Sequence record: DRR723986_4006
Length of the DNA: 64,000 nucleotides
Direction: 5' to 3' (one strand)
Shown here: positions 1,047-48,636 of the stretch, in pieces
How positions within the stretch are numbered: position 1 is the first letter of the stretch
How the letters are laid out: every line of letters begins with the position of its first letter
Position numbers and translations under genes: made by a program
Notes under the pieces: generated by a model
What the model was told of the DNA's origin: nothing
Database searches by the model: none
The model's input: the letters and a program-made list of their open reading frames with translations, nothing else

Positions 1047-1748
1047 TTAGCGCTTTTCAGGCTCTAGATTAGCAATAAATTCTTCTGGTGTTATGGCATT
1101 GTCAACCGAAAATTCACCTATTCGTGTACGTCGTAATTCAGATAAATGAGCACCAGAATTAAGTGCTTTTCCAAAGTCGTGTGCTAAGGATCTTATATAA
1201 GTGCCTTTACTACAAATAACCCTAAATTTTAATTCAACACCACTAATTTCAGTAATTTCAAATGCTTTAATTTCTACCTCACGAGATTTAATTTCAACAT
1301 CTTCACCAGCTCTGGCAAACTCATAGAGTCGCTTTCCATCCTTTTTAATGGCTGAGAATACAGGAGGATATTGATTTATTTTACCAATAAATTGCTCCGT
1401 GGTTTTATGAATTAAGTCTTGGGTAATATGCTCAATAGGATATGTTTTATCTATTTCAGTCTCAAGGTCATAAGAAGGTGTTGTACTGCCTACGACAAAA
1501 GTGCCAGTATATTCTTTTTCTTGCCCTTGAAAGGTGTTGATTTGCTTAGTCATTTTACCAGTACAAATAATGAGTAAGCCTGTTGCTAAAGGATCTAAAG
1601 TCCCTGCGTGACCAACCTTAATCTTTTTAATATTAAAGGCTTGTCGTATAGACCAACGTAATTTATTAACGGCCTGAAAAGAGGTCCAATTTAAAGGCTT
1701 ATATATTAATAAAACCTGTCCGTTTTTATAGTCTTCTCCTGTGAGCAT
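1047..1748 (-). CDS. truB: tRNA pseudouridine(55) synthase
   Basis: KVGHAGTLDPLATGLL and CSKGTYIRSLAHD motifs. Confidence 0.97.
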   Translation of the reverse strand: MLTGEDYKNGQVLLIYKPLNWTSFQAVNKLRWSIRQAFNIKKIKVGHAGTLDPLATGLLIICTGKMTKQINTFQGQEKEYTGTFVVGSTTPSYDLETEIDKTYPIEHITQDLIHKTTEQFIGKINQYPPVFSAIKKDGKRLYEFARAGEDVEIKSREVEIKAFEITEISGVELKFRVICSKGTYIRSLAHDFGKALNSGAHLSELRRTRIGEFSVDNAITPEEFIANLEPEKR

Positions 1749-2551
1749 TACATTGTTTTCCAGATTATGGCTGCAAGTCCAACTACTACACAGTAAATAG
1801 CGAAATAGCTCAGTTTACTTTGTTTAACGAGTTTTATCATCCAGGTACAAGCAAAAAGACCGGAAATAAAAGCAGCGATAAAGCCAACACTTAAGTATGT
1901 GAAATTAGAACTAGAGTAGTCTATTTGACCTTCCATAATGTCTTTTGCAATTTTTCCAAATATTAAGGGTACGACCATTAAAAATGAAAATCTAGCCGCT
2001 TTAGACTTATCTATTCCAAGTAAGACAGATGTAGATATTGTTGCACCAGATCTAGAAATTCCAGGTAACATGGCAACACCCTGAGCCAATCCAATGACAA
2101 AACCATCTAGAAGTGACACTTTTTTATGAGTCTTTTTAGCTCTATCAGCTAGAAATAATAATAGGGCTGTAACAATTAACATACAACCAACCAAAAAAAT
2201 ACTATTTCCGAAAAGTTCTTCAAATTCGTGCTCAAATTTATAGCCAATAATTACAGCAGGAATCATGGAAATAATAATTTTAGCTGAAAATTTAGCCTCT
2301 TCTGTCCAGGACAAAGTCGTAATCCCTTTAAATAGGCCTTTAAAAATTATAGCTACATCTTTTCTAAAAACCACAATTGTACTTAAAGCGGTTGCAAAGT
2401 GAAGAACAACAGTAAAAAGTAAACTTTCTTGCGGTAAAGCATCGTTACCAAGTAGTGCTTTGCCTAACTCTAAATGACCACTAGAAGATACTGGCAAAAA
2501 CTCCGTAAGTCCTTGTATTACTCCTAAAATTACAGCATCAATAATTTCCAT
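1748..2551 (-). CDS. uppP: Undecaprenyl-diphosphate phosphatase
   Basis: QGLTEFLPVSSSGH and PGISRSGATI motifs; multiple TM helices. Confidence 0.97.
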   Translation of the reverse strand: MEIIDAVILGVIQGLTEFLPVSSSGHLELGKALLGNDALPQESLLFTVVLHFATALSTIVVFRKDVAIIFKGLFKGITTLSWTEEAKFSAKIIISMIPAVIIGYKFEHEFEELFGNSIFLVGCMLIVTALLLFLADRAKKTHKKVSLLDGFVIGLAQGVAMLPGISRSGATISTSVLLGIDKSKAARFSFLMVVPLIFGKIAKDIMEGQIDYSSSNFTYLSVGFIAAFISGLFACTWMIKLVKQSKLSYFAIYCVVVGLAAIIWKTM

Positions 2552-2608
2552 GAGGCAAAAGTATCAATTAAAGTAAAGATACACTTTAAAAGGTATGTAA
2601 ACTCAATA

Positions 2609-2872
2609 TTATTTTTTAGAATCTTTATTTGGGTTCAAAAGAATAGCATAAACCTGAATTCCAAAACCTATTAATACGAGAGTAGGAGCAAGTCTAATTC
2701 GTCTCCAACTAAAGATAGAAGGATCAAATACATTTGGGTCGTCACTTCCTCCGCCTGCCATTAAGATAAATCCAATGACAATACATGATAAACCAATAAG
2801 CATAAACTTATAGTTTTTTTTACCGAAAATAAATTCTGCTTTAGACTCTTCTTTACGCTTTTTTTCTCCCAT
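2609..2872 (-). CDS. DUF3098-like small membrane protein
   Basis: Two TM helices, FGKKNY...IRLAP; usual position between ftsX and uppP in Bacteroidota. Confidence 0.8.
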   Translation of the reverse strand: MGEKKRKEESKAEFIFGKKNYKFMLIGLSCIVIGFILMAGGGSDDPNVFDPSIFSWRRIRLAPTLVLIGFGIQVYAILLNPNKDSKK

Positions 2873-2874
2873 TT

Positions 2875-3234
2875 TTAATCAAATTCTGTATAAATGATAT
2901 CATCACCTAGAGCTAGTTGCGAAATATGTTCGGAAGTCACTCCACCCAAAATCTTAGCTAAATGCAAAGTAACGGTTTTATTTAAAACTTTTGTCTTAAG
3001 AGAATCTAAATTTAAGCCTTGTTCTAACCCTCTGTTGATGTAGTAGAAATCTGTTCCATCATCGTAAAAGACAATATCCTTTACTCCGCCTTCATTAATT
3101 TTGGTAACTTTTATATCAATGACAACACATTCCTCTGGTTTTGGATTTTGAATAATACACGATTTCAATAAAAAAAATAAAGCGAGAACTAGTAAAGTAA
3201 TTGCGCCAGCAATTATAGAAACAGATTTTTTCAT
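2875..3234 (-). CDS. Hypothetical membrane-anchored protein
   Basis: 119-aa ORF with N-terminal hydrophobic helix, in operon context. Confidence 0.65.
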   Translation of the reverse strand: MKKSVSIIAGAITLLVLALFFLLKSCIIQNPKPEECVVIDIKVTKINEGGVKDIVFYDDGTDFYYINRGLEQGLNLDSLKTKVLNKTVTLHLAKILGGVTSEHISQLALGDDIIYTEFD

Positions 3235-3293
3235 GGTTGGTGGTTTTTACTTAAAACGGAGATTGAGTTATTTTATTTTATATAATCTAAGAC

Positions 3294-4172
3294 CTAATAA
3301 TACAACTGATCCGTCTTCAAATTTAAGAAGCGTTGTGTAGCGATAAAGGTGCTAATCCAAGTAATAACAATACCTAATAAGAATATGCCAACGAATAACG
3401 CAATAATCGAAACCGTATTTCTCAATAATTCCAATTCTGGGAATGTAATGTCTAAGTAATACAATACCACAGCCATTCCTGCCAAAGCGACAAGAGCTCC
3501 AATGACACCTAATTGTACACTTTTCCATACAAAAGGTCTGCGGATAAAAGTTTTAGTTGCACCAACCATCTGCATGGTTTTAATGATAAATCGTTTTGAA
3601 TAAACCGCCAAACGAATAGAACTGTTAATGAGTAGAACAGCAATAAGTGTAAACAAACCACTAATAATCAATACCCAAAACGTAATCTTCTTAACATTAT
3701 CATTCATTAGTTCCACCAAATCATTGTCATATCTAATTTCTTCAATAAATGCTTTATTAGATAGACTTTCCGTAATTTCAGTTAGCTGTTCGGTAGTGAC
3801 ATAATCGGCTTTTAAGTAAACATCTATGGAGTTTTTCAACGGATTATAACCTACAAAATCCATAAAGTCTTCACCTGTTTCAGCCTTCATAAGTTCAGCA
3901 GCTTCCTCTTTAGACACATATTTGGCTTCTTTGGTATAATCTGCCATAGCCAGACTTTTTTTAAGTTGGTTAACTTCAACCTCTTTAGCTGTATCATTTA
4001 GATAAATAGTCATTACGACTTGTTCTTTAAAATGATCGGCTACCTTTTTAGAGTTAATAACCAGCAAGCCCAGGCAACCTAAAAGAAATAATACCAGAGC
4101 GATGCTTATAACAACTGAGATATAAGATGATATTAGTTTTCGTTTTTGGTACTTGTCAAAGGATGATGCCAT
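3294..4172 (-). CDS. ftsX: Cell division permease FtsX
   Basis: Four TM helices; LINSSIRL...IKTMQMVGAT..FIRRPF motif. Confidence 0.93.
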   Translation of the reverse strand: MASSFDKYQKRKLISSYISVVISIALVLFLLGCLGLLVINSKKVADHFKEQVVMTIYLNDTAKEVEVNQLKKSLAMADYTKEAKYVSKEEAAELMKAETGEDFMDFVGYNPLKNSIDVYLKADYVTTEQLTEITESLSNKAFIEEIRYDNDLVELMNDNVKKITFWVLIISGLFTLIAVLLINSSIRLAVYSKRFIIKTMQMVGATKTFIRRPFVWKSVQLGVIGALVALAGMAVVLYYLDITFPELELLRNTVSIIALFVGIFLLGIVITWISTFIATQRFLNLKTDQLYY

Positions 4173-37837: not shown

Positions 37838-40800
37838 ATGTATTTAATATTTGATACCGAGACTACTGGTTTACCCAAGCGTTGGGATGCCCCAATTACA
37901 GATACAGATAATTGGCCAAGAGCCGTACAGATTGCATGGCAGTTGCACGATGCTATGGGAAATTGTATTGAGCAACAGGATTATTTAATACAGCCTGATG
38001 GTTTTAATATCCCTTTTGATGCCGAGAAAATTCATGGTATTTCAACCGAACTGGCACAAGAACAAGGTGTACCACTAACTGAGGTTTTAGAAAAGTTTAA
38101 TGAAGCACTATCTAAAACCAAGTTTGTTGTTGGGCAAAATGTAAAGTTCGATTTAAATATAATGGGCGCAGAGTTTGTGCGCGAAGATGTGGCAAATCCA
38201 TTGCAAGAGCTTCCAGTTTTAGATACGTGTACTGAGCATACGGCTAATTTATGCCGAATTCCTGGTGGTAGAGGAGGAAAATTTAAACTACCTACACTTA
38301 CAGAATTACATCAGTTTTTATTTGACCAGCCATTTGCCGAAGCACATAATGCAACAGCAGATGTTGAGGCAACTACACGTTGCTTCTTCGAACTTGTTAG
38401 AAAAGAGCAATATACTGTTGAACAACTCGATGTGCAACCCGATTATTTTCAGAAATTTTCAGAAGAGAATCCAGATACGATTCAGCTTATTGGTTTAAAG
38501 CATATTAATCTAAAACGCGAAAGTGCTAAGATTAATGAACGTCTTCAAAAAGAGCAATCACAAGAACTTCCAACTGAAACTAACAAAGCAGCAGCTGCGC
38601 TATTAGCAGATGTCGATTTTGTACATCTTCATAATCATTCACAATTTTCAATACTTCAATCTACCATAAGTGTTAAAGATCTGGTAGAGGCGGCTGCAAA
38701 AGAGGAAATGCCTGCAGTAGCATTGACTGATCATGGTAATATGATGGGAGCATTTCATTTTGTTAGCGCTGTGTCTAATCATAATAAATCTGTGAAAGCT
38801 CAACATGCCGAAGCTGAAGAAAATGGAGAAGAAAAGAAAGGACAGATTATTAAACCAATTATTGGCTGTGAGTTTTTTGTATGCGAAAATCATACAGATA
38901 AAACAAGAAAAGATAACGGTTATCAAATTGTGTTATTGGCTAAAAACAAAAAGGGCTACCACAATTTAGCGAAGCTATCTTCAGCGGCTTTTACCGATGG
39001 GTTTTACTACGTGCCAAGAATTGATAAACAACTTATAGAGCATTACAAAGAGGATCTTATTTGTTTAACAGGTAATCTTTATGGTGAAGTACCAAGCAAG
39101 GTTCTGAATATTGGTGAAAATCAAGCAGAAGAAGCTCTTTTATGGTGGAAGGATGCTTTCGGTGACGATTTATATATCGAATTGATGCGTCATAACCAGG
39201 AAGATGAAAATCGTGTTAACCAAGTTTTGGTTCAATTTGCAAGGAAGCATAATGTTAAGTTGGTTGCAACTAATAATACCTATTATGTAGAGCAAGAAAA
39301 TGCCAATGCACACGATATTTTATTGTGTGTAAAGGATGGTGAAAAGCAAGCAACACCAATTGGGCGCGGTCGAGGATATCGTTATGGATTGACAAATCAG
39401 GAATACTACTTCAAGTCCTCTGAAGAGATGAAAGCCTTATTTAGAGATATTCCTGAAGCTATTGTAAATATTCAAGAAGTTGTAGATAAAATCGAAGCTT
39501 ATGAATTAGCGCGCGATGTATTACTTCCTGCTTTTGATATTCCAAATGAATTCAAGTTTGAAGATGACGAAGCCGATGGAGGTAAGCGTGGGGAGAATAC
39601 CTATTTAAAACACCTCACTTACGAAGGTGCTAAAAAACGCTATGGTGAAATTACACCGGAAATAAAAGAGCGCCTTGACTTTGAGCTTAGCGTTATTGAA
39701 AACACAGGCTATCCAGGTTACTTCTTGATTGTAGAAGATTTCATTCGAGAAGCACGAAATATGGATGTGTCTGTTGGTCCAGGTCGTGGATCTGCTGCTG
39801 GTTCTGTAGTTGCCTATTGTCTTTGGATAACTAATATAGATCCAATTAAGTACGATTTACTTTTTGAGCGTTTCTTGAATCCAGATCGTGTGAGTATGCC
39901 AGATATAGATATTGATTTTGATGATGAAGGTCGTGGAAGAGTTATGCAATATGTAATTGATAAATACGGAGCCAATCAAGTAGCACAAATTATCACTTAT
40001 GGTACTATGGCAGCAAAAACATCCATTAGAGATACTGCTCGAGTATTGGATTTACCACTCAATGAGGCCGACCATATTGCGAAGTTAATTCCTAATATGT
40101 CTAAGCTTGGTAAGATATTCGGCAAGAGCGAAAAAGAATTAGCTAGTAAATTTAGATCAGAGGAATTAGAGAAGGTAAATCAACTGCTAAATATTTCAGA
40201 TGGTGAAGACTTGCAAGCCGAAACGGTTAATCAAGCGAGAGTATTAGAAGGTTCTGTTCGTAATACTGGCATACATGCTTGTGGTGTAATTATCACACCA
40301 GGTGATATTACCAATTATGTACCTGTTTCGGTAGCTAAAGATTCAGATTTGTACGTCACTCAGTTTGATAACTCTGTAGTAGAAAGTGCTGGTTTGCTAA
40401 AGATGGATTTCCTTGGACTAAAGACGTTAACCTTAATTAAGGATACTGTTAAGATTGTTAAAGCAAAACATGGCATTGAACTTGATCCTGAAAATTTTCC
40501 GTTAGATGATGAAGAAACCTATGCGTTATTCCAAAGAGGTGAAACCGTAGGGATATTTCAGTACGAATCACCAGGAATGCAAAAACACATGAAGCATTTA
40601 AAGCCTACTGTTTTTGACGATTTAATTGCCATGAATGCACTCTATCGTCCTGGACCTATGGAATATATTCCGAGTTTTATTCGTAGAAAACATGGTGATG
40701 AAGAGATTGTTTATGATTTACCAGAAATGGAAGAATACCTTAAGGAAACTTATGGTATTACGGTATACCAAGAGCAGGTAATGTTATTGTCTCAGAAGTT

Positions 40801-42223
40801 GGCAGATTTTACTAAAGGTGAAGCTGATGTATTGAGAAAGGCCATGGGTAAAAAGCAAAAGGCTGTACTGGATAAGATGAAGCCAAAATTCATTGAACAA
40901 GCTGCTGCTAAAGGCATGGATAAGGAGAAGCTCGAAAAAATCTGGAAGGATTGGGAAGCTTTTGCAAGTTATGCATTTAACAAGTCGCACTCAACTTGTT
41001 ACGCATGGATTGCTTATCAGACGGCTTATTTAAAAGCACATTATCCAGCAGAATATATGGCTGCTGTACTATCTAATAATATGAATGACATAAAGTCTGT
41101 AACCTTCTTTATGGAAGAGTGTAAGCGTATGCGTTTACCTGTTTTAGGGCCAAGTGTTAATGAGAGTTATTATAAGTTTTCAGTAAATAAAGATAATGCC
41201 GTTCGATTTGGAATGGGAGCCATAAAGGGTGTTGGTCATGGTGCTGTAAAAACCATTGTAGAAAACAGAAAAAATGATGGAAACTACAAGTCTATTTTTG
41301 ATTTAGCTAAACGTATAGACCTAAGAGCTGCAAATAAGAAGTCGTTTGAAGGTTTAGCTAATGCAGGTGGCTTTGATTGTTTTGAAGGTACACATCGAGC
41401 TCAATACTTTGCGCACGATGGAGATGGTATTACCTTTTTAGAAAAGGCTATTCGATATGGAGCCAAGCATCAGGAAAATGAGAATTCTGCACAGGTAAGT
41501 TTATTTGGTGCGGCAAGTGAAGTACAAATTGCTGAACCACAAGTACCACCATGTGAGGATTGGGGAACTATGGAAAAATTATCTCGAGAAAAAGAAGTTG
41601 TTGGGATTTATATCTCTGGTCATCCACTCGATGATTTTAAAATTGAGATGAAAACCTTTTGTAATGGTACTATTTCAGCATTTAATAATCTTGAAGTAAT
41701 ACTCAATAGAGAAATCACCTTTGGTGGAGTTGTAACAGATGTACAGCATCGCGTAAGCAAACAAGGAAAAGGGTGGGCACTATTTACAATTGAGGATTAT
41801 ACAGACAGCTTTGAATTTAGAATCTTCGGTGAAGACTATCTAAAATTTAGACACTTCTTTGTAGTAAATTCCTTCGTGTATGTTCGAGCTTATATTAAAG
41901 AAGGTTGGGTGAATAGGGATACCGGTAAAAAGGGTGAGCCAAGAATTCAATTTAATAGTTTTCAGCTTTTGCACGATGTTATGGATACTTACGCCAAGAA
42001 GTTATCTATACAATTGAATATTGATGATTTAAAGGCTGAGAAAATAAACAACTTACAAGATTTATTTAGAATGCATGATGGCAATAATTCACTTAATTTT
42101 TTAGTCTATGATAATACTGAAAAATTAAAACTCACAATGCCAAGTCGAAAACAGAAGGTGAAGATATCTCAAGAACTATTAAATGAGCTAGAGGCTCAGG
42201 ATGTGATGTATAAATTAAATTAA
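37838..42223 (+). CDS. dnaE: DNA polymerase III alpha subunit with fused N-terminal DEDDh exonuclease
   Basis: DTETTG...HNATAD exonuclease; HLHNHS PHP domain; GRGSAAGS, PDIDIDF, YAFNKSHS. Confidence 0.96.
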   Translation: MYLIFDTETTGLPKRWDAPITDTDNWPRAVQIAWQLHDAMGNCIEQQDYLIQPDGFNIPFDAEKIHGISTELAQEQGVPLTEVLEKFNEALSKTKFVVGQNVKFDLNIMGAEFVREDVANPLQELPVLDTCTEHTANLCRIPGGRGGKFKLPTLTELHQFLFDQPFAEAHNATADVEATTRCFFELVRKEQYTVEQLDVQPDYFQKFSEENPDTIQLIGLKHINLKRESAKINERLQKEQSQELPTETNKAAAALLADVDFVHLHNHSQFSILQSTISVKDLVEAAAKEEMPAVALTDHGNMMGAFHFVSAVSNHNKSVKAQHAEAEENGEEKKGQIIKPIIGCEFFVCENHTDKTRKDNGYQIVLLAKNKKGYHNLAKLSSAAFTDGFYYVPRIDKQLIEHYKEDLICLTGNLYGEVPSKVLNIGENQAEEALLWWKDAFGDDLYIELMRHNQEDENRVNQVLVQFARKHNVKLVATNNTYYVEQENANAHDILLCVKDGEKQATPIGRGRGYRYGLTNQEYYFKSSEEMKALFRDIPEAIVNIQEVVDKIEAYELARDVLLPAFDIPNEFKFEDDEADGGKRGENTYLKHLTYEGAKKRYGEITPEIKERLDFELSVIENTGYPGYFLIVEDFIREARNMDVSVGPGRGSAAGSVVAYCLWITNIDPIKYDLLFERFLNPDRVSMPDIDIDFDDEGRGRVMQYVIDKYGANQVAQIITYGTMAAKTSIRDTARVLDLPLNEADHIAKLIPNMSKLGKIFGKSEKELASKFRSEELEKVNQLLNISDGEDLQAETVNQARVLEGSVRNTGIHACGVIITPGDITNYVPVSVAKDSDLYVTQFDNSVVESAGLLKMDFLGLKTLTLIKDTVKIVKAKHGIELDPENFPLDDEETYALFQRGETVGIFQYESPGMQKHMKHLKPTVFDDLIAMNALYRPGPMEYIPSFIRRKHGDEEIVYDLPEMEEYLKETYGITVYQEQVMLLSQKLADFTKGEADVLRKAMGKKQKAVLDKMKPKFIEQAAAKGMDKEKLEKIWKDWEAFASYAFNKSHSTCYAWIAYQTAYLKAHYPAEYMAAVLSNNMNDIKSVTFFMEECKRMRLPVLGPSVNESYYKFSVNKDNAVRFGMGAIKGVGHGAVKTIVENRKNDGNYKSIFDLAKRIDLRAANKKSFEGLANAGGFDCFEGTHRAQYFAHDGDGITFLEKAIRYGAKHQENENSAQVSLFGAASEVQIAEPQVPPCEDWGTMEKLSREKEVVGIYISGHPLDDFKIEMKTFCNGTISAFNNLEVILNREITFGGVVTDVQHRVSKQGKGWALFTIEDYTDSFEFRIFGEDYLKFRHFFVVNSFVYVRAYIKEGWVNRDTGKKGEPRIQFNSFQLLHDVMDTYAKKLSIQLNIDDLKAEKINNLQDLFRMHDGNNSLNFLVYDNTEKLKLTMPSRKQKVKISQELLNELEAQDVMYKLN

Positions 42224-43728: not shown

Positions 43729-43802
43729 GGTCTGGTAGTTCAGTTGGTTAGAATGTCGCCCTGTCACGGCGAAGGTCGCGGGTTCGAGTCCCGTCCAGAC
43801 CG
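43729..43802 (+). tRNA. tRNA-Asp (GTC)
   Basis: Acceptor GGTCTGG/CCAGACC with discriminator G, anticodon arm TCGCC-CTGTCAC-GGCGA, T-loop TTCGAGT; CCA not encoded; -7 box TATATTTG at 43703. Confidence 0.97.
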
Positions 43803-43815
43803 CTAAAATTGGAGA

Positions 43816-43841: not shown

Positions 43842-44106
43842 CAATATAAAGATGTTGTGTTGTTCTCAGGTTATAAAATCTGAGACGTAGTAGAATTCCA
43901 AGTAGTATTGGAAATTTACCAATGAAAGGCTTTCCTTTTTTCTTTTCAGAAAATCGGGATGCTTTTTTGTTTTTGACAACATCATTTACCTTCTTTAACG
44001 TATTTAGCATCAATACTTTTTAACATGTTATGAACATCTAAATGGTATTTTATCGATAAAAACTACAGATAATCGGTAAAATACTTGTTATTTATAGAAT
44101 TAAATC

Positions 44107-44114
44107 TATATTTG
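44107..44114 (+). promoter_or_regulatory. -7 promoter element for the small peptide gene
   Basis: TATATTTG about 220 nt upstream of ATG 44333. Confidence 0.55.
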
Positions 44115-44332
44115 TTGTCCTTCTTAAGTCCTCAAATCGCTTATCAAGGACATTTTAATCCATTTTACTTTTAGACCTAACAGGTCAAGAACGTCCCTCG
44201 TTTAATTTTAGTATTGTTTTAGGCAAGTCCTAAAGTAGTTAATTATCCATTCCTTTCCCTCGGATCAATGCTTTTGCATTGCAAAATTGTAATAATTACT
44301 ATTTAATAAACCCTAAATTAATACTTAAACCT

Positions 44333-44500
44333 ATGAAATCCTTAAAAATTACTTTAGCCTTAGTTGCAATTGTTATGTTAACTGTATCTGGTCTGCAATC
44401 TAATGATGTTGCAAGCGACCAGCCTACTTATGAAACAAAAAGCAACTTTGATTTGTTAGCTACAAATAAGAAAAAAGGAGCAAAGCCATCTAACGCTTAA
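44333..44500 (+). CDS. Small secreted peptide precursor (55 aa), candidate signalling peptide
   Basis: MKSLK n-region, ITLALVAIVMLTVSG h-region, no lipobox Cys, basic tail NKKKGAKPSNA; A-rich start context and its own terminator. Confidence 0.75.
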   Translation: MKSLKITLALVAIVMLTVSGLQSNDVASDQPTYETKSNFDLLATNKKKGAKPSNA

Positions 44501-44525
44501 ACTTCTAATTCTTTTTAATATACAT

Positions 44526-44553
44526 AGTCCTTATTATTCAATAAGGGCTTTTT
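44526..44553 (+). terminator. Intrinsic terminator after the peptide gene
   Basis: AGTCCTTATT-ATTC-AATAAGGGCT-TTTT. Confidence 0.75.
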
Positions 44554-44634
44554 GTGTTATTATATATTTCTTTTCTTCAGGTATATTTGAATTTTAATTG
44601 TTAGTTTTAGAATATCAATTAAACTTCATAAAGA

Positions 44635-46671
44635 TTGTTTAGATATACCATATTATTTGCAATTTTAATTACGGGTTTGTTATCGGTAAATGCGCAAAAT
44701 GATTCAGCTATTTTTGATAGTATCCAAAAATACAGAGCCTTAACGGCTGATGAAAATTTTGATTTTAATCAAAGACTTCAATTTGCTAAAAAAGCAGTAA
44801 GCCTCTCTGAGCAAACAAAACTCGATTCTACGATATTATACAGTAATAGACAATTATCTTTTGTCTACTTAATGATAGATGATTATGAACCGTTTAGAGA
44901 AATCAACTGTAATAGTTTAAAACTGGCTTCTAAATTAAAAGATACGTTATCATTAGCCGCAGTTAATAACAATTTAGGATATTATCATTTTCAAGATGCA
45001 CGTTCAGATAGTTCTTATTATTATTATTCTAAAGCTTTAAAGTTTTTTATTGAACTGAATAATAAAGACGAAGAAGCGATTATCCTATTAAACATAGCGA
45101 ATATTCAAGAAACTGAAAAAGATTATGTAGGCGCTGAAGAAAGTGCAATTGACGCTATAAAAATCACAAATTCCCTACCAAAAACTCAAGTACGGCTAGA
45201 CAGGTTGTGGTCTCTCCATAACTTAATAGGTATTACCTCTTTAAAGCTCAAATCCTATGATAGAGCCATTGAATACCATAATAAAGCCTTGGAATATGCA
45301 GATGAAATGAGGTATGGATATTACAATAAATTGTATTCTACAAATAATTTAGCGGAAGTCTACAAGACAAAAGGTGATATAGAAAAATCTATAGAACTTT
45401 ATGAAATAGTAGTTAAACAAAAAGAAAGATATATAGACGACGATCCTTCATTCTACGCCATTGCACTTGCAAATCTTGCTTATACCAAATCCTTAAGAAA
45501 GGAAAATAATCTAGCAGAATTAAAGACAATGTTTTATGAAGCTAAAAATATAAGTGATACGCTAGATGACAAATTATCAAAAACGGGTATTGCAATAGAT
45601 TTAGCAAGGTTTTACAAAAACCTAAATGAAGTGGATTCAGCATTATTCTATGCAGATAGAAGTCGTAGATTAGCAGAAGAGTCTTCTAACAATGAGTTAT
45701 TATTAAAGGCACTATTTATTTTGTCAGACCTTAAAGATGGTGATGAAAGTAAGTATTATTCAAAAAGATATATTAAGCTCGCAGATAGTTTACTTGATAA
45801 AGAAAGAAATGCAAGAAATAAGTTTGCAAGACTCACTTTAGAAACAGACCAATTAGAGGCTGAAAATCAACAAATCTCAAAAGAGAATTTATATCTATTA
45901 ATACTTTCAATTGGATCTTTACTTACTGCCATTCTAATCTATGTTGTAATTTCTCAACGAGCTAAGAATAGAAAATTAAAACTCTTACAAGTTCAACAAA
46001 AAGCTAACGAAGATATTTATAATTTAATGTTAATTCAACAAGACAAAGTTGATGAAGCAAGAACGCAAGAGAAGAAACGAATTTCGGAGGAGCTTCATGA
46101 TGGTGTATTAGGTAGATTATTTGGTACTAGATTAAGTCTTGATAGTATTAATTTTAAAGATGGTAAAGAGGCTATGACAACTAGAGCTAACTATATTAGT
46201 CAGCTTAAAACTATAGAAGAGGACATCCGCAAAATCTCGCATGAGTTAAATACAGACTTTGTTACAGGTACTAGTTTTATGGATATTGTATCAGAACTTA
46301 TTGAGAATCAAACTAAAGCCTATGGATTAGATTATGAATTTGATTTTACAGATGATATAAGCTGGGATTTGGTAAGCAATAAAACTAAAATAAACGTTTA
46401 CAGAATCATACAAGAATCAATGCAAAATATTTACAAACATGCAAATGCTTCACAGATTAAAATTAGTATTTCATTAAAAAATAATGTAATTTGCTTAGAC
46501 ATTATTGATGACGGTTCTGGTTTTGATACAGCCAAAAGCAAGAAAGGAATTGGACTTAAAAATATGACTTCTCGTGTAGAAGATGTTAATGGAAAAATTA
46601 CCTTTTTATCTGAGCAAGGACAAGGAACAAGTGTTTATGTTAAGATTCCCTATACTAACCAATCAGCATGA
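44635..46671 (+). CDS. TPR-containing sensor histidine kinase (HisKA_3 type)
   Basis: Signal peptide ...VNA|Q, several TPR helices, one TM helix (LYLLILSIGSLLTAILIYVVI), H-box RISEELHDG, QESMQNIYKHA, DDGSGF, GIGL; -7 box TATATTTG at 44582. Confidence 0.92.
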   Translation: MFRYTILFAILITGLLSVNAQNDSAIFDSIQKYRALTADENFDFNQRLQFAKKAVSLSEQTKLDSTILYSNRQLSFVYLMIDDYEPFREINCNSLKLASKLKDTLSLAAVNNNLGYYHFQDARSDSSYYYYSKALKFFIELNNKDEEAIILLNIANIQETEKDYVGAEESAIDAIKITNSLPKTQVRLDRLWSLHNLIGITSLKLKSYDRAIEYHNKALEYADEMRYGYYNKLYSTNNLAEVYKTKGDIEKSIELYEIVVKQKERYIDDDPSFYAIALANLAYTKSLRKENNLAELKTMFYEAKNISDTLDDKLSKTGIAIDLARFYKNLNEVDSALFYADRSRRLAEESSNNELLLKALFILSDLKDGDESKYYSKRYIKLADSLLDKERNARNKFARLTLETDQLEAENQQISKENLYLLILSIGSLLTAILIYVVISQRAKNRKLKLLQVQQKANEDIYNLMLIQQDKVDEARTQEKKRISEELHDGVLGRLFGTRLSLDSINFKDGKEAMTTRANYISQLKTIEEDIRKISHELNTDFVTGTSFMDIVSELIENQTKAYGLDYEFDFTDDISWDLVSNKTKINVYRIIQESMQNIYKHANASQIKISISLKNNVICLDIIDDGSGFDTAKSKKGIGLKNMTSRVEDVNGKITFLSEQGQGTSVYVKIPYTNQSA

Positions 46672-46753
46672 AATAAACTATAAGTATGCTATTTAAATTT
46701 TAGCGTATTATAGTTAATTCCATCTGTCCCTAAATTTGAATAAAACAAAACAG

Positions 46754-47422
46754 ATGAAACATATTAACATTTTAATGGTAGATGACCATCCAATTATTAT
46801 TGAAGGTTACCAAAATGTTTTAATGTCAACTAAAGAAGAAGACCAAACTTTACTTATTGATACTGCAAATAATTGTGATACTGCTCAATTAATGATTCAT
46901 AGGGCCGCAGACGGAACACCATATGATGTTTGCTTTTTTGATATAAGTTTGCCTGCTTCAGAAGATGGTAAATATACCAGTGGAGAGGATTTAGCATTAT
47001 TGACCAAATGCCTACTACCAGAAGCTAAAATTATTATTCTAACAATGTTCAATGAATCTTTCAGAATACATAATATCATTAAAGAAATAAATCCGGATGG
47101 ATTCTTAATAAAAAGTGATTTAACGTCTATGGAGTTGGCAGATGCGTTTCAGCAAATATTAAGTTCACCACCATATTACAGTAGCACTGTAAACAACTAT
47201 GTAAAAAAGACTATTACCAGCGAAATTTATGTAGATGATGTTAACCGTAAAATTTTGCATTTACTCTCTCAAGGCATAAAAACAAAAAGTTTAAACGAAT
47301 ATATTCCGCTATCTACAAGTGCTATTGAAAAGCGAAAAAAGCAACTAAAGTTATTATTTTCTGTAACCGACGGAAAGGACGAAACATTGCTTCAAGAAGC
47401 TAGAGAAAAAGGTTATTTATAG
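46754..47422 (+). CDS. NarL/LuxR-like response regulator
   Basis: MVDDH, FFDISLP phospho-Asp, LTM, LIK; C-terminal HTH (LLSQG..TK...LS.SAIEKRK). ATG 46754 preferred over TTG 46736. Confidence 0.9.
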   Translation: MKHINILMVDDHPIIIEGYQNVLMSTKEEDQTLLIDTANNCDTAQLMIHRAADGTPYDVCFFDISLPASEDGKYTSGEDLALLTKCLLPEAKIIILTMFNESFRIHNIIKEINPDGFLIKSDLTSMELADAFQQILSSPPYYSSTVNNYVKKTITSEIYVDDVNRKILHLLSQGIKTKSLNEYIPLSTSAIEKRKKQLKLLFSVTDGKDETLLQEAREKGYL

Positions 47423-47449
47423 AAATTTGTGAAAAAAAAACACCGTTTT

Positions 47450-47546
47450 TACGGTTGTTAAATCTTCTTCAAAGTACCGTTCTAATTGAAAACTACGGTT
47501 TAACCACAGCATTTTTGAGGTTTAACCACAACAAAAAGTCGGTTAC
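47450..47546 (+). repeat. 22-bp-phased GGTT repeat array (putative regulator binding sites)
   Basis: Perfect GGTTTAACCACA at 47497 and 47519; further GGTT cores at 47453 and 47541. Confidence 0.7.
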
Positions 47547-47565
47547 GATATTTACATTTACACCA

Positions 47566-47658
47566 AGTCAACAAGAATTAATTAATCCCTCTTTAAGTAA
47601 TTGTTGAGTTAATAGCAAGAAAATTAACCTAGTAGCATCTCATGTTACTAGGTTTTTT
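47566..47658 (+). ncRNA. Candidate ~90-nt small RNA
   Basis: -7-like TACATTTA at 47553, stem TCAACAA/TTGTTGA with a TCCCTCT loop, then a terminator; no ORF. Confidence 0.5.
47626..47658 (+). terminator. Intrinsic terminator (possibly bidirectional)
   Basis: AACCTAGTAGCA-TCTCA-TGTTACTAGGTT-TTTT. Confidence 0.85.
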
Positions 47659-47660
47659 CT

Positions 47661-48158
47661 TTATAGTAAACTAGCATTATAGTCTGATAACTTCACGATA
47701 AAAAAACCAAGAAATATTATTGCCACAATAAACTTTAAAAATGTTGATGCAATAAAGCCTAAAAAAGATCCAAACGCTGCTTTCAATGCTTTATCAAAAT
47801 CATTTCTATGTATCATTTCACCAATCAATGCACCAACAAATGGGCCAATAATAATACTAAAGGGAATAGGTGATAAAATACCAACAAGAAGACCCAAAGT
47901 CGTACCTATCATACCAGCTCTGCTACCACCAAAGCGTTTTGTGCCTAATGCAGGTATAATGTAATCTAATATGTAAATGAAGATAGCAACCAAAAGTGTA
48001 CTGATAAGAAATGTTTGCGATAATTCAACACCTTCAGTAAAATGAAGTACTAATAAACCTGCCCAACTGGTGAGTGGACCTGGTAATATTGGTAAAAAAC
48101 TACCAATTATTCCTAATATCATTAATAACAGTGCAACCAGCACTAAAAATAATTCCAT
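47661..48158 (-). CDS. DUF456 membrane protein
   Basis: GSFLPILPG, GTKRFGGS, GPFVGA..GE motifs. Confidence 0.88.
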   Translation of the reverse strand: MELFLVLVALLLMILGIIGSFLPILPGPLTSWAGLLVLHFTEGVELSQTFLISTLLVAIFIYILDYIIPALGTKRFGGSRAGMIGTTLGLLVGILSPIPFSIIIGPFVGALIGEMIHRNDFDKALKAAFGSFLGFIASTFLKFIVAIIFLGFFIVKLSDYNASLL

Positions 48159-48276: not shown

Positions 48277-48636
48277 ATGAAACAGTTAACAAAAGCAGAA
48301 GAAGAAATAATGCAGGCACTATGGCAATTAAAAAAGGCCAATGTTAAGTCTGTTATAGAAGTTTTACCAGAGCCTAAGCCTGCGTATAACACGGTTTCTA
48401 CAATAATAAGAATATTAGAATCAAAGGGATTTGTAGATTACGAAAAACAAGGCAAAGGTCATATCTATTTTCCGGTTGTGGCAAAAGAATCCTACAGTAA
48501 TCAATCGATAAATAAATTAGTAGACAATTATTTTCAAGGTTCTTTCAAAAGTATGGTTTCCTTTTTTGTGCAAAAAAATGATGTAGACGTTAAGGATATT
48601 GAAGGATTATTAAAGGGGATTGATAAAAACAAGTAA
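48277..48636 (+). CDS. BlaI/MecI/CopY family repressor
   Basis: LTKAEEEIMQALW, AYNTVSTIIRILESKG, YFQGS. Confidence 0.93.
   Translation: MKQLTKAEEEIMQALWQLKKANVKSVIEVLPEPKPAYNTVSTIIRILESKGFVDYEKQGKGHIYFPVVAKESYSNQSINKLVDNYFQGSFKSMVSFFVQKNDVDVKDIEGLLKGIDKNK

Follow-up and report, generated by a model that had tools for sequence, protein, structure and literature searches.

The agr system of Staphylococcus comprises AgrBDCA and RNAIII, with a polytopic AgrC and a LytTR regulator. The RRNPP receptors are cytoplasmic transcription factors or phosphatases in which a tetratricopeptide repeat (TPR) domain holds a short, re-imported peptide. FimS of Porphyromonas gingivalis carries TPR motifs, as its NCBIfam name also suggests, and glmY of Escherichia coli adjoins the qseE/qseG/qseF operon. 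The last of these systems, QseE(GlrK)/QseG/QseF(GlrR)-GlmY, is the closest published analogue in logic of the locus described here: parts of PMC6075780 portray a membrane kinase, a co-encoded exported accessory (lipo)protein that acts on the periplasmic part of the kinase, a regulator, and a small RNA (sRNA) whose promoter carries upstream sites for the regulator, with the envelope as the presumed source of the signal. Here, we analyze a 64,000-nucleotide stretch of DNA from sequence record DRR723986_4006 (the window), which encodes a small exported protein, a TPR sensor histidine kinase, a NarL-like response regulator, and an sRNA of about 93 nucleotides (nt), all on the plus strand. Sequence comparisons show that these four elements form one conserved module, which apparently has not yet been described in print.

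No part of this module is homologous to its E. coli counterpart, as Pfam and NCBIfam place the module proteins in other families and Rfam returns no GlmY match. The sensor is a TPR superhelix of about 395 amino acids (aa), and the accessory protein is only about 32 residues long when mature; its gene, flanked by a separate promoter and terminator, often occurs in tandem arrays. The regulator is of the NarL type, whereas QseF, in the relevant part of PMC6075780, drives Sigma 54-dependent promoters. Within the Bacteroidota, FimS-FimR of P. gingivalis similarly features a kinase with a periplasmic sensing domain and an unknown signal, with fimbrial genes as its output; the part of PMC11053733 that deals with it describes no small open reading frame (ORF) or sRNA partner. 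The module kinase is not a FimS orthologue, since it scores 29.3 bits against the NCBIfam FimS model (NF053520), which has a cut-off of 600. PorA-PorY/PorX of P. gingivalis provides a precedent in the phylum for an organism's own exported protein serving as the ligand of a periplasmic kinase. It differs in that PorA, a cargo of type IX secretion, binds PorY through its C-terminal domain, and the system, as outlined in parts of PMC12152298, works through a different regulator and a sigma-factor cascade, without a TPR sensor or an sRNA output.

Like agr, the module combines a gene for a small peptide with a kinase and a regulator, next to which a regulatory RNA with C-rich loops is encoded. Unlike agr, it has no AgrB-like gene, its conserved parts being limited to the small ORF, the kinase, the regulator, and the sRNA. 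Its kinase is of the HisKA_3 type with a single transmembrane (TM) helix after the TPR domain, its regulator is NarL-type rather than LytTR, and the predicted regulator operator is absent from the sequences where autoinduction would act. With the RRNPP receptors, it shares a TPR domain of the peptide-binding kind, with Rap chains among the fold matches; the module TPR domain, however, is fused to a histidine kinase and is predicted to lie outside the cytoplasm, a topology read from sequence. The initial annotation of the window, made from its letters alone, knew of no characterized Bacteroidota system with this layout, and our literature search agrees, QseE/QseG/QseF-GlmY lying outside the phylum. 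We found no description of the module, although a homologue may be present among the 85 new RNAs that PMC9723704 lists for the Flavobacterium psychrophilum transcriptome.

Results

Using the kinase as the query, a contig search returned 121 relatives, of which we retained the best 80 (48 to 79% identity) as orthologous loci. Almost all are from Winogradskyella, with some from Aquaticitalea and unnamed Flavobacteriaceae; the window itself is Winogradskyella-like. The reach of the module within the family was assessed in an even sample of 151 Flavobacteriaceae genomes, from which 40 of 46 sRNA-bearing loci were retrieved (family-wide loci), and 14 yet more distant loci were examined beyond these. 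Five whole genomes of relatives served for genome-wide uniqueness checks. The features listed by the initial annotation all lie on the plus strand, at or near where it had placed them, downstream of a tRNA-Asp gene (43729-43803), and their conservation across loci marks them as more than chance.

The regulator directly follows the kinase in 79 of the 80 orthologous loci, the remaining locus (L001) being cut. A small ORF precedes the kinase in 78 of the 80 by pattern search, or 78 of the 79 that are assessable, as L064 has no upstream DNA. The same ORF is present in 39 of the 40 family-wide loci (39/39 assessable) and in 8 of the 14 still more distant ones. The family-wide locus that could not be assessed, L109, has an insertion of about 2 kb separating the kinase from the regulator (about 1700-3675). 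Downstream, a covariance model of the sRNA (R1) detects a plus-strand copy in each of the 79 loci whose DNA extends past the regulator. The initial annotation had proposed conservation of an upstream small ORF and a downstream structured RNA as the test of its reading, and both are thus borne out. The outcome that it had named as refuting, kinase orthologues devoid of the peptide gene, is not what these loci show. Across the family sample, the sRNA is present in 46 of 151 genomes, about a third, and all 40 retrieved loci have the kinase (41 to 55% identity) and the regulator (60 to 81%) directly upstream. A regulator with at least 61% identity occurs in 49 of the 151 genomes; all 46 sRNA holders are among these, and the remaining 3 carry divergent sRNA copies.

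The sRNA (47565-47659, plus strand; alignment A1) consists of a 5' hairpin with AAUCCCUC in its loop, a single-stranded GUUAAUAGCAAGAAA, and an intrinsic terminator at 47626-47654; the loop contains CCCUC and TTAATCCCTC. The Bacteroidota -7 promoter consensus is TAnnTTTG, and a -7 box-like TACATTTA at 47553-47560 is the putative sRNA promoter, its consensus TAtaTTTa being kept in 79 aligned spacers. The alignment shows an almost invariant GTCAACAAGAATTAATTAATCCCTC..TTAAGTAATTGTTGA.TTAATAGCAAGAAA, followed by a hairpin of variable sequence and a T run. RNAalifold identified 16 pairs among 78 sRNA sequences, and compensatory changes affect 8 of the 10 pairs in the terminator. No sequence breaks the 5' stem, in which A-to-G changes (10 and 2 sequences) keep G-U pairing on the plus strand only. 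With a covarying terminator and a strand signal, the element behaves as a conserved non-coding transcript unit, and a conserved ORF within it is excluded because loop indels of 1 and 2 bases break the frame. Model R1 scores the window copy at 104.3 bits, and its detections include L045 and L050, which lie outside the set used to build it.

The sRNA is single-copy in four of the five whole genomes. It is duplicated or triplicated in a few genomes, including contig 13 of G155; L071 has two copies (3522-3628 and 3769-3879), as does L068 (6858-6947 and 9690-9778), and in the genome of the latter (G005) each copy has its own operator pair. Some 230 additional nt separate the regulator from the sRNA in L045 (6693-7062). 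No Rfam family fits the sRNA. The Rfam trpB motif (RF04312) was considered and rejected, since its 31.9 bits fall well short of the gathering score of 59 and the match reflects a generic hairpin-linker-terminator layout. RNA-library data were available as assembled contigs from four metatranscriptome runs, in which starts, strand, and level are unreadable and DNA carry-over is possible; none of these contigs covers the sRNA, and assembled contigs cannot reveal an RNA of about 93 nt.

Two TACGG-N5-CCGTA-type operators, spaced 22 bp apart (47494-47508 and 47516-47530), are conserved in the spacer between the regulator and the sRNA. A repeat search of this region returned 47497-47511 and 47519-47533, 93% alike and 22 bp apart, and the spacer alignment contains two copies of TACGGTTTTtCCgCA at the same distance. 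The region is 238 nt long here, and the spacer between the regulator and the DUF456 gene beyond the sRNA measures 221 to 267 nt in 67 of 70 cases. The initial annotation had described a longer 22-bp-phased repeat array; two of its repeats are conserved, and the other phased repeats are not. Four whole genomes contain the paired operator once each, and the fifth, in which the sRNA is duplicated, contains it twice; a reversed-pattern control gave 0 matches in the five genomes.

We scanned 126 loci by region for this operator, allowing at most 1 mismatch. Within 200 nt 3' of the regulator gene, there are 116 sites (89 loci), whereas the regulator and kinase genes themselves contain 6 and 2, respectively, and neither the peptide promoter region nor the spacer between peptide and kinase has any. 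The corresponding densities per kb are 4.6 after the regulator, 0 in both upstream regions, 0.008 in the kinase gene, and 0.07 in the regulator gene. No autoinduction loop of the peptide gene is therefore visible. The loose form of the operator (at most 2 mismatches) occurs 6 times in the window, compared with 6.2 expected, so only the strict or the paired form is informative. Among more divergent loci, those with regulators of 53 to 59% identity (L139-L145) have a palindromic site of this type right after the regulator gene, and in L139 and L143-L145 it remains even without the DUF456 and BlaI neighbors. The small ORF is present in L139, L140, and L142-L144. Single sites of this type follow the regulator gene in L146-L148, where regulator identity is 48 to 51%.

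The operator pair is the predicted site of the regulator because it comprises tandem dimer-type palindromes two helical turns apart, is genome-unique, and is tied to one regulator subfamily; binding by this regulator best explains the pattern. Operator placement and co-occurrence also make the sRNA the most likely output of the regulator, a well-supported assignment from sequence that agrees with the initial annotation, which had cast the sRNA with its phased sites as the output. We infer that the regulator activates rather than represses the sRNA.

Pairing of the sRNA with the mRNAs of its own module was evaluated in 40 loci against shuffled sRNA. The mean z was -0.58 for the peptide start, -0.04 for the leader, and +0.12 and +0.49 for the kinase and regulator starts, respectively, with no consistent site in any of them. 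None rises above the shuffled controls, and pairing with the module's own mRNAs was set aside as unsupported. The complement of the sRNA loop AGAGGGATTAA (at most 2 mismatches) has 24 matches in the window, compared with 25.5 expected.

The regulator (46754-47422, plus strand, 222 aa) is a putative NarL/LuxR-type protein that resembles NarL-family regulators over its full length, with an acidic pocket, phospho-Asp, Thr, and Lys evident in its sequence. Its Response_reg match of 29.7 bits lies just below the cut-off of 30.2, a Pfam search gave no GerE match at E <= 0.01, and full-length NCBIfam matches to MctR, NarL, RcsB, and FimZ are each below their respective cut-offs. Identity across the Winogradskyella-type loci is 70 to 92%, far above that of the kinase.

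The sensor histidine kinase (44635-46671, plus strand, 678 aa) has an N-terminal signal/TM segment, the TPR sensor, a TM helix (about residues 419-440), a HisKA_3-type H-box, and a HATPase domain. Signal peptides and the TM helix were read directly from the sequence rather than by a dedicated predictor. Pfam matches include TPR_12 (1.3e-14) and HATPase_c (2.5e-12; 47.6 bits, cut-off 26.4), with HisKA_3 at 22.3 bits, just below its cut-off of 24. NCBIfam gives long partial matches to the HisKA_3 kinases MctS, UhpB, LiaS, and NarX/Q, and related proteins carry the name tetratricopeptide repeat-containing sensor histidine kinase. No variation is seen at H488, N598, or the G boxes among 76 kinase sequences; the H-box together with HATPase_c places the protein in the HisKA_3/NarL class.

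An AlphaFold2 model of residues 21-418, built on a 60-sequence alignment, has a mean predicted local distance difference test score (pLDDT) of 92.4 and a predicted template modeling score of 0.86. It shows 19 helices wound into a TPR superhelix, the last being a long stalk helix that continues into the TM segment. The best Foldseek match is the TPR domain of LGN/Pins (E 5e-10, TMq 0.6), followed by OGT, designed TPRs, and Rap receptors; RapI has a TMq of 0.65 at E 1.9e-6, and LGN and OGT score better. In the matched LGN/Pins structures, extended peptides of Inscuteable, NuMA, and Frmpd occupy the channel. Since the best matches are TPRs with a peptide in the groove, the sensor fold is of the kind that holds extended peptides. 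The model thus supports the peptide-binding-type TPR superhelix anticipated by the initial annotation, as a likeness and not as proof, and the domain is predicted to face the periplasm.

The small exported protein (44333-44500, plus strand, 55 aa) has a Sec-type signal peptide, with Lys2, Lys5, a hydrophobic core, and then SGLQS, and a mature part of about 32 aa. Its consensus reads MKTLKITLaLvAv..LTVSGvqS, followed by a variable stretch of about 33 aa with PTY, DLLAH, and KKK.K.P.QG. Codon-position entropies are 1.05/0.76/1.37, the third position being the most variable and the second the least, and 16,255 of 36,381 pairwise codon differences (45%) in the signal part are synonymous. Lengths differ in whole codons only, which fits a translated gene. 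Judged by these patterns, the small ORF is a genuine coding gene under clear protein-level selection. The family has 543 members at E <= 0.001; among the 120 listed, no Pfam domain was found, and the named ones are called hypothetical protein, with one odd exception. In the five whole genomes, the profile at the same threshold matches no place but this locus, and one extra weak match (E 0.009) sits within a 905-aa ORF.

Tandem arrays of the small ORF arose independently in at least six loci, with a period of about 207 to 237 nt and one leader for the whole array. Winogradskyella rapida (L038, 1664-3908) has 10 tandem copies at the locus and 12 to 13 genome-wide, and W. arenosi (L040, 2907-3908) has 5; further arrays occur in L122 (5 copies), L125 (4), L140 (3), and L142 (5). 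The protein also comes in two classes, which we compared, together with their charges, in 127 loci. The Winogradskyella form has a signal peptidase I-type signal, and many other genera have a lipoprotein (26/127 loci), MKTLKITLI.AL...LTSC followed by TKQDLNEDDVL...TGG..., with an acidic mature part after the lipobox cysteine. Sensors average +1.2 in charge where the small protein is an acidic lipoprotein (mean charge -6.8) and -10.2 where it is basic or neutral (mean charge +1.0), a gap of about 11 units. The sensor part diverges far faster than the cytoplasmic part of the kinase (mean distance 0.585 versus 0.257), and the mature peptide faster than the signal part (0.66 versus 0.32). Distances of the mature peptide and the sensor are correlated (Mantel r 0.55), also when the cytoplasmic part is controlled for (partial r 0.53). 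A complex prediction of sensor residues 21-418 with mature peptide residues 24-55 gave a score of 0.02, which we count neither for nor against binding. The small protein is a putative ligand of the TPR sensor, whose peptide-holding fold would suit it.

The small-protein gene forms its own transcription unit, with a Bacteroidota-type -7 box, TATATTTG, at 44107-44114 that is at least 80% conserved across 77 aligned upstream regions. The terminator that the initial annotation assigned to the small ORF (44526-44549) is upheld, with a terminator-like hairpin of differing stem sequence in 78 of 79 peptide-kinase spacers. The initial layout needs correction in that the kinase-regulator pair has a -7 box of its own, again TATATTTG, at 44582-44589, 46 nt upstream of the kinase start; a box that fits TAnnTTTG recurs ahead of the kinase in 69 of the 79 spacers. 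The hairpin after the ORF and the box before the kinase are what define the small gene as a separate unit.

Between the promoter and the ORF lies a leader of about 210 nt (44120-44332, 5' end putative) with C-rich blocks. The conserved blocks TTAATCCATT, TCCCTC (twice), and AACCCTAAA are common to both peptide classes, and the C-rich ones resemble the TTAATCCCTC of the sRNA loop. The 436-nt transcript (44120-44555) folds at -86.2 kcal/mol, compared with -69.0 +/- 4.9 for shuffles (z -3.49). Leader hairpins were identified by eye, and RNAalifold returned 0 consensus pairs for 32 leaders in a gappy alignment. Contigs from the RNA libraries cover the leader and ORF (44142-44477 in X1, 44148-44485 in X4, and 44341-44517) as well as pieces of the kinase and regulator, subject to the same possible DNA carry-over. 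A CCCTAAATT motif occurs about 20 to 35 nt upstream of the start codons of the small ORF (44310-44332) and the regulator (46712-46753); the copy before the small ORF is conserved as AACCCTAAA.

Upstream of the small-protein promoter, two ATCGAT-centered sites are spaced about 22 bp apart (44045-44084). The first is the palindrome TTTTATCGATAAAA at 44048-44061, and the related second site spans 44068-44084. The consensus cATTTnATCGATaAaa is present twice and kept in both the Winogradskyella-type and lipoprotein-type loci. Double sites of this type are also found elsewhere in the genomes of relatives: one (L150, about 1994-2023) precedes the second of two esterase-like genes, and look-alikes were seen in two other genomes. 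We rejected the double site as a module-specific operator, given the similar sites at other loci and the matches of some reversed-pattern controls. With such sites also found ahead of an esterase-like gene and at other places, they are probably recognized by a different factor, which hints at a separate regulon that takes in the small-protein gene.

Beyond the sRNA, a DUF456 membrane protein gene (47661-48158, minus strand) is convergent to the regulator, an arrangement found in 69 of the 80 orthologous loci, and a BlaI/penicillinase-repressor-like gene follows (48277-48636, plus strand). The sRNA terminator is 6 nt away from the DUF456 stop codon and may act on both strands. An element of about 60 nt at 43907-43973 is 84 to 93% identical in the five genomes of relatives, with one or two copies each that are not always close to the module. 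Contigs from three RNA libraries overlie it and carry dissimilar sequence on either side of it, and an Rfam search gave no match at E <= 1; the element is perhaps a conserved RNA or a repeat not yet described. Further upstream, a DNA polymerase III alpha-like ORF of 1461 aa (37838-42223) starts with a DnaQ-like exonuclease motif (FDTETTGL) and appears to have a fused proofreading domain.

Discussion

On balance, we favor an envelope three-component system, in which an exported accessory protein, a kinase, and a regulator control an sRNA, over a diffusible autoinducer loop, because of the lipoprotein forms, the absence of autoinduction, and the absence of an exporter. The locus would yield three transcripts, namely, the small-protein mRNA, the kinase-regulator mRNA, and the sRNA. 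What the concave TPR face would read is the small protein after export, or else how much of it the envelope contains, where it resides there, or how it has been processed, and this reading would set the balance of kinase and phosphatase activities. Once phosphorylated, regulator dimers would bind both operators, which lie immediately ahead of the sRNA promoter at a spacing of two helical turns, and would activate transcription. The sRNA would work in trans through its exposed AAUCCCUC loop.

Several observations weigh against this interpretation. The small-protein gene is bounded by a separate promoter and terminator, and its ATCGAT-type sites are unlike the operator of the regulator and recur at other loci. 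One assessable orthologous locus, L025, lacks the small ORF; it lies at the end of a metagenome-assembled genome contig, with 362 nt upstream. DUF456 and the BlaI-like gene are also syntenic with the module in most loci, family-wide, so adjacency alone is weak evidence. Conservation is higher in the signal peptide than in the mature part, contrary to expectation if the latter alone matters. The Mantel correlation between peptide and sensor may reflect shared descent and physical linkage. The peptide class switches four times on the regulator tree, yielding three to four independent pairs, and with so few switches a sign test cannot reach 0.05, so that the charge trend is not significant. Within the classes, the correlation of peptide and sensor charge is also not significant (rho -0.18 and -0.16).

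Two other explanations deserve mention. The small protein may be a mere conserved neighbor with a separate role, such as a surface or antimicrobial peptide, while the TPR kinase senses something else, such as an envelope protein that is misfolded or has failed to assemble, or a peptide from a host or from algae. Such an arrangement would account for the separate terminator and the promoter with sites found at other loci, it would treat the small gene like the equally syntenic DUF456 and BlaI-like genes, and it would accord with FimS, the closest TPR kinase in the phylum, whose ligand is still unknown according to part of PMC11053733. We nevertheless consider it unlikely, as the small ORF keeps its place directly upstream of the kinase in L139, L143, and L144, where the DUF456/BlaI synteny is gone, and the five whole genomes hold no other match to the small protein at E <= 0.001. 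The change of class also accompanies the shift in sensor charge, though this trend is underpowered. Judged from synteny, the small protein has a closer link to the kinase than the other neighbors have. Alternatively, the mature peptide may leave the cell, accumulate with density, re-enter the periplasm, and bind the TPR domain, making the sRNA the output of a peptide quorum-sensing system. The repeated amplification of the small gene, up to 12 to 13 copies, suits a stoichiometric, diluted product and keeps a signaling explanation alive; the mature part evolves fast, forms sequence types, and correlates with the sensor domain, and the TPR fold resembles that of the Rap pheromone receptors. The agr-like, quorum-sensing interpretation offered by the initial annotation is nonetheless weakened. 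The lipoprotein forms would be membrane-anchored, the conserved module has no gene for export, processing, or outer-membrane passage, the regulator operator is missing from the peptide promoter and the peptide-kinase spacer, and the supposed signal is less conserved than the signal peptide that exports it. Diffusible quorum sensing consequently seems improbable to us.

A further explanation, which we regard as quite remote, is that the small-protein transcript acts chiefly as a regulatory RNA, dual-function like RNAIII or SgrS, with the peptide being secondary and the leader and the sRNA addressing the same G-rich targets or the same RNA-binding protein. It draws on the leader blocks TTAATCCATT and TCCCTC (twice) kept in both peptide classes, the likeness of the leader motifs CCUC, UCCCU, and UCCCUC to the sRNA loop, and a transcript more structured than its shuffles. 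The ORF, however, is under clear protein-level selection, as seen in the synonymous changes of its signal part and its conserved second codon positions; RNAalifold gives no consensus structure for the leader; and no partner emerged, with matches to the sRNA loop complement no more frequent in the window than expected. To our knowledge, the Bacteroidota have neither Hfq nor ProQ.

Returning to the envelope three-component system, we tentatively entertain a more specific version of it, which is possible yet doubtful. A dual-function mRNA would yield large amounts of a tiny sentinel (lipo)protein, which would report the state of its own export or processing to the TPR kinase, and the regulator would have essentially one strong target in the genome, the sRNA with the C-rich loop. 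The leader and the sRNA would then be a riboregulatory pair acting on shared G-rich targets or a shared RNA-binding protein.

Flavobacteriaceae are major marine degraders of algal matter, and we found little literature on their signal transduction and RNA regulation. The module adds two unnamed families, the small protein and an sRNA without an Rfam family, and offers a compact, testable circuit, complete from the input at the sensor to the sRNA as its output, that about one in three sampled genomes of the family carries. Because the pair of operator and sRNA is essentially genome-unique, it provides a clean handle for dissecting the function of the sRNA. The small protein is a candidate ligand for periplasmic TPR sensor kinases, a class whose signals are unknown, as part of PMC11053733 illustrates for FimS. 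If the sentinel version is true, the module would constitute an envelope-surveillance or peptide-signaling circuit unlike any described in the phylum.

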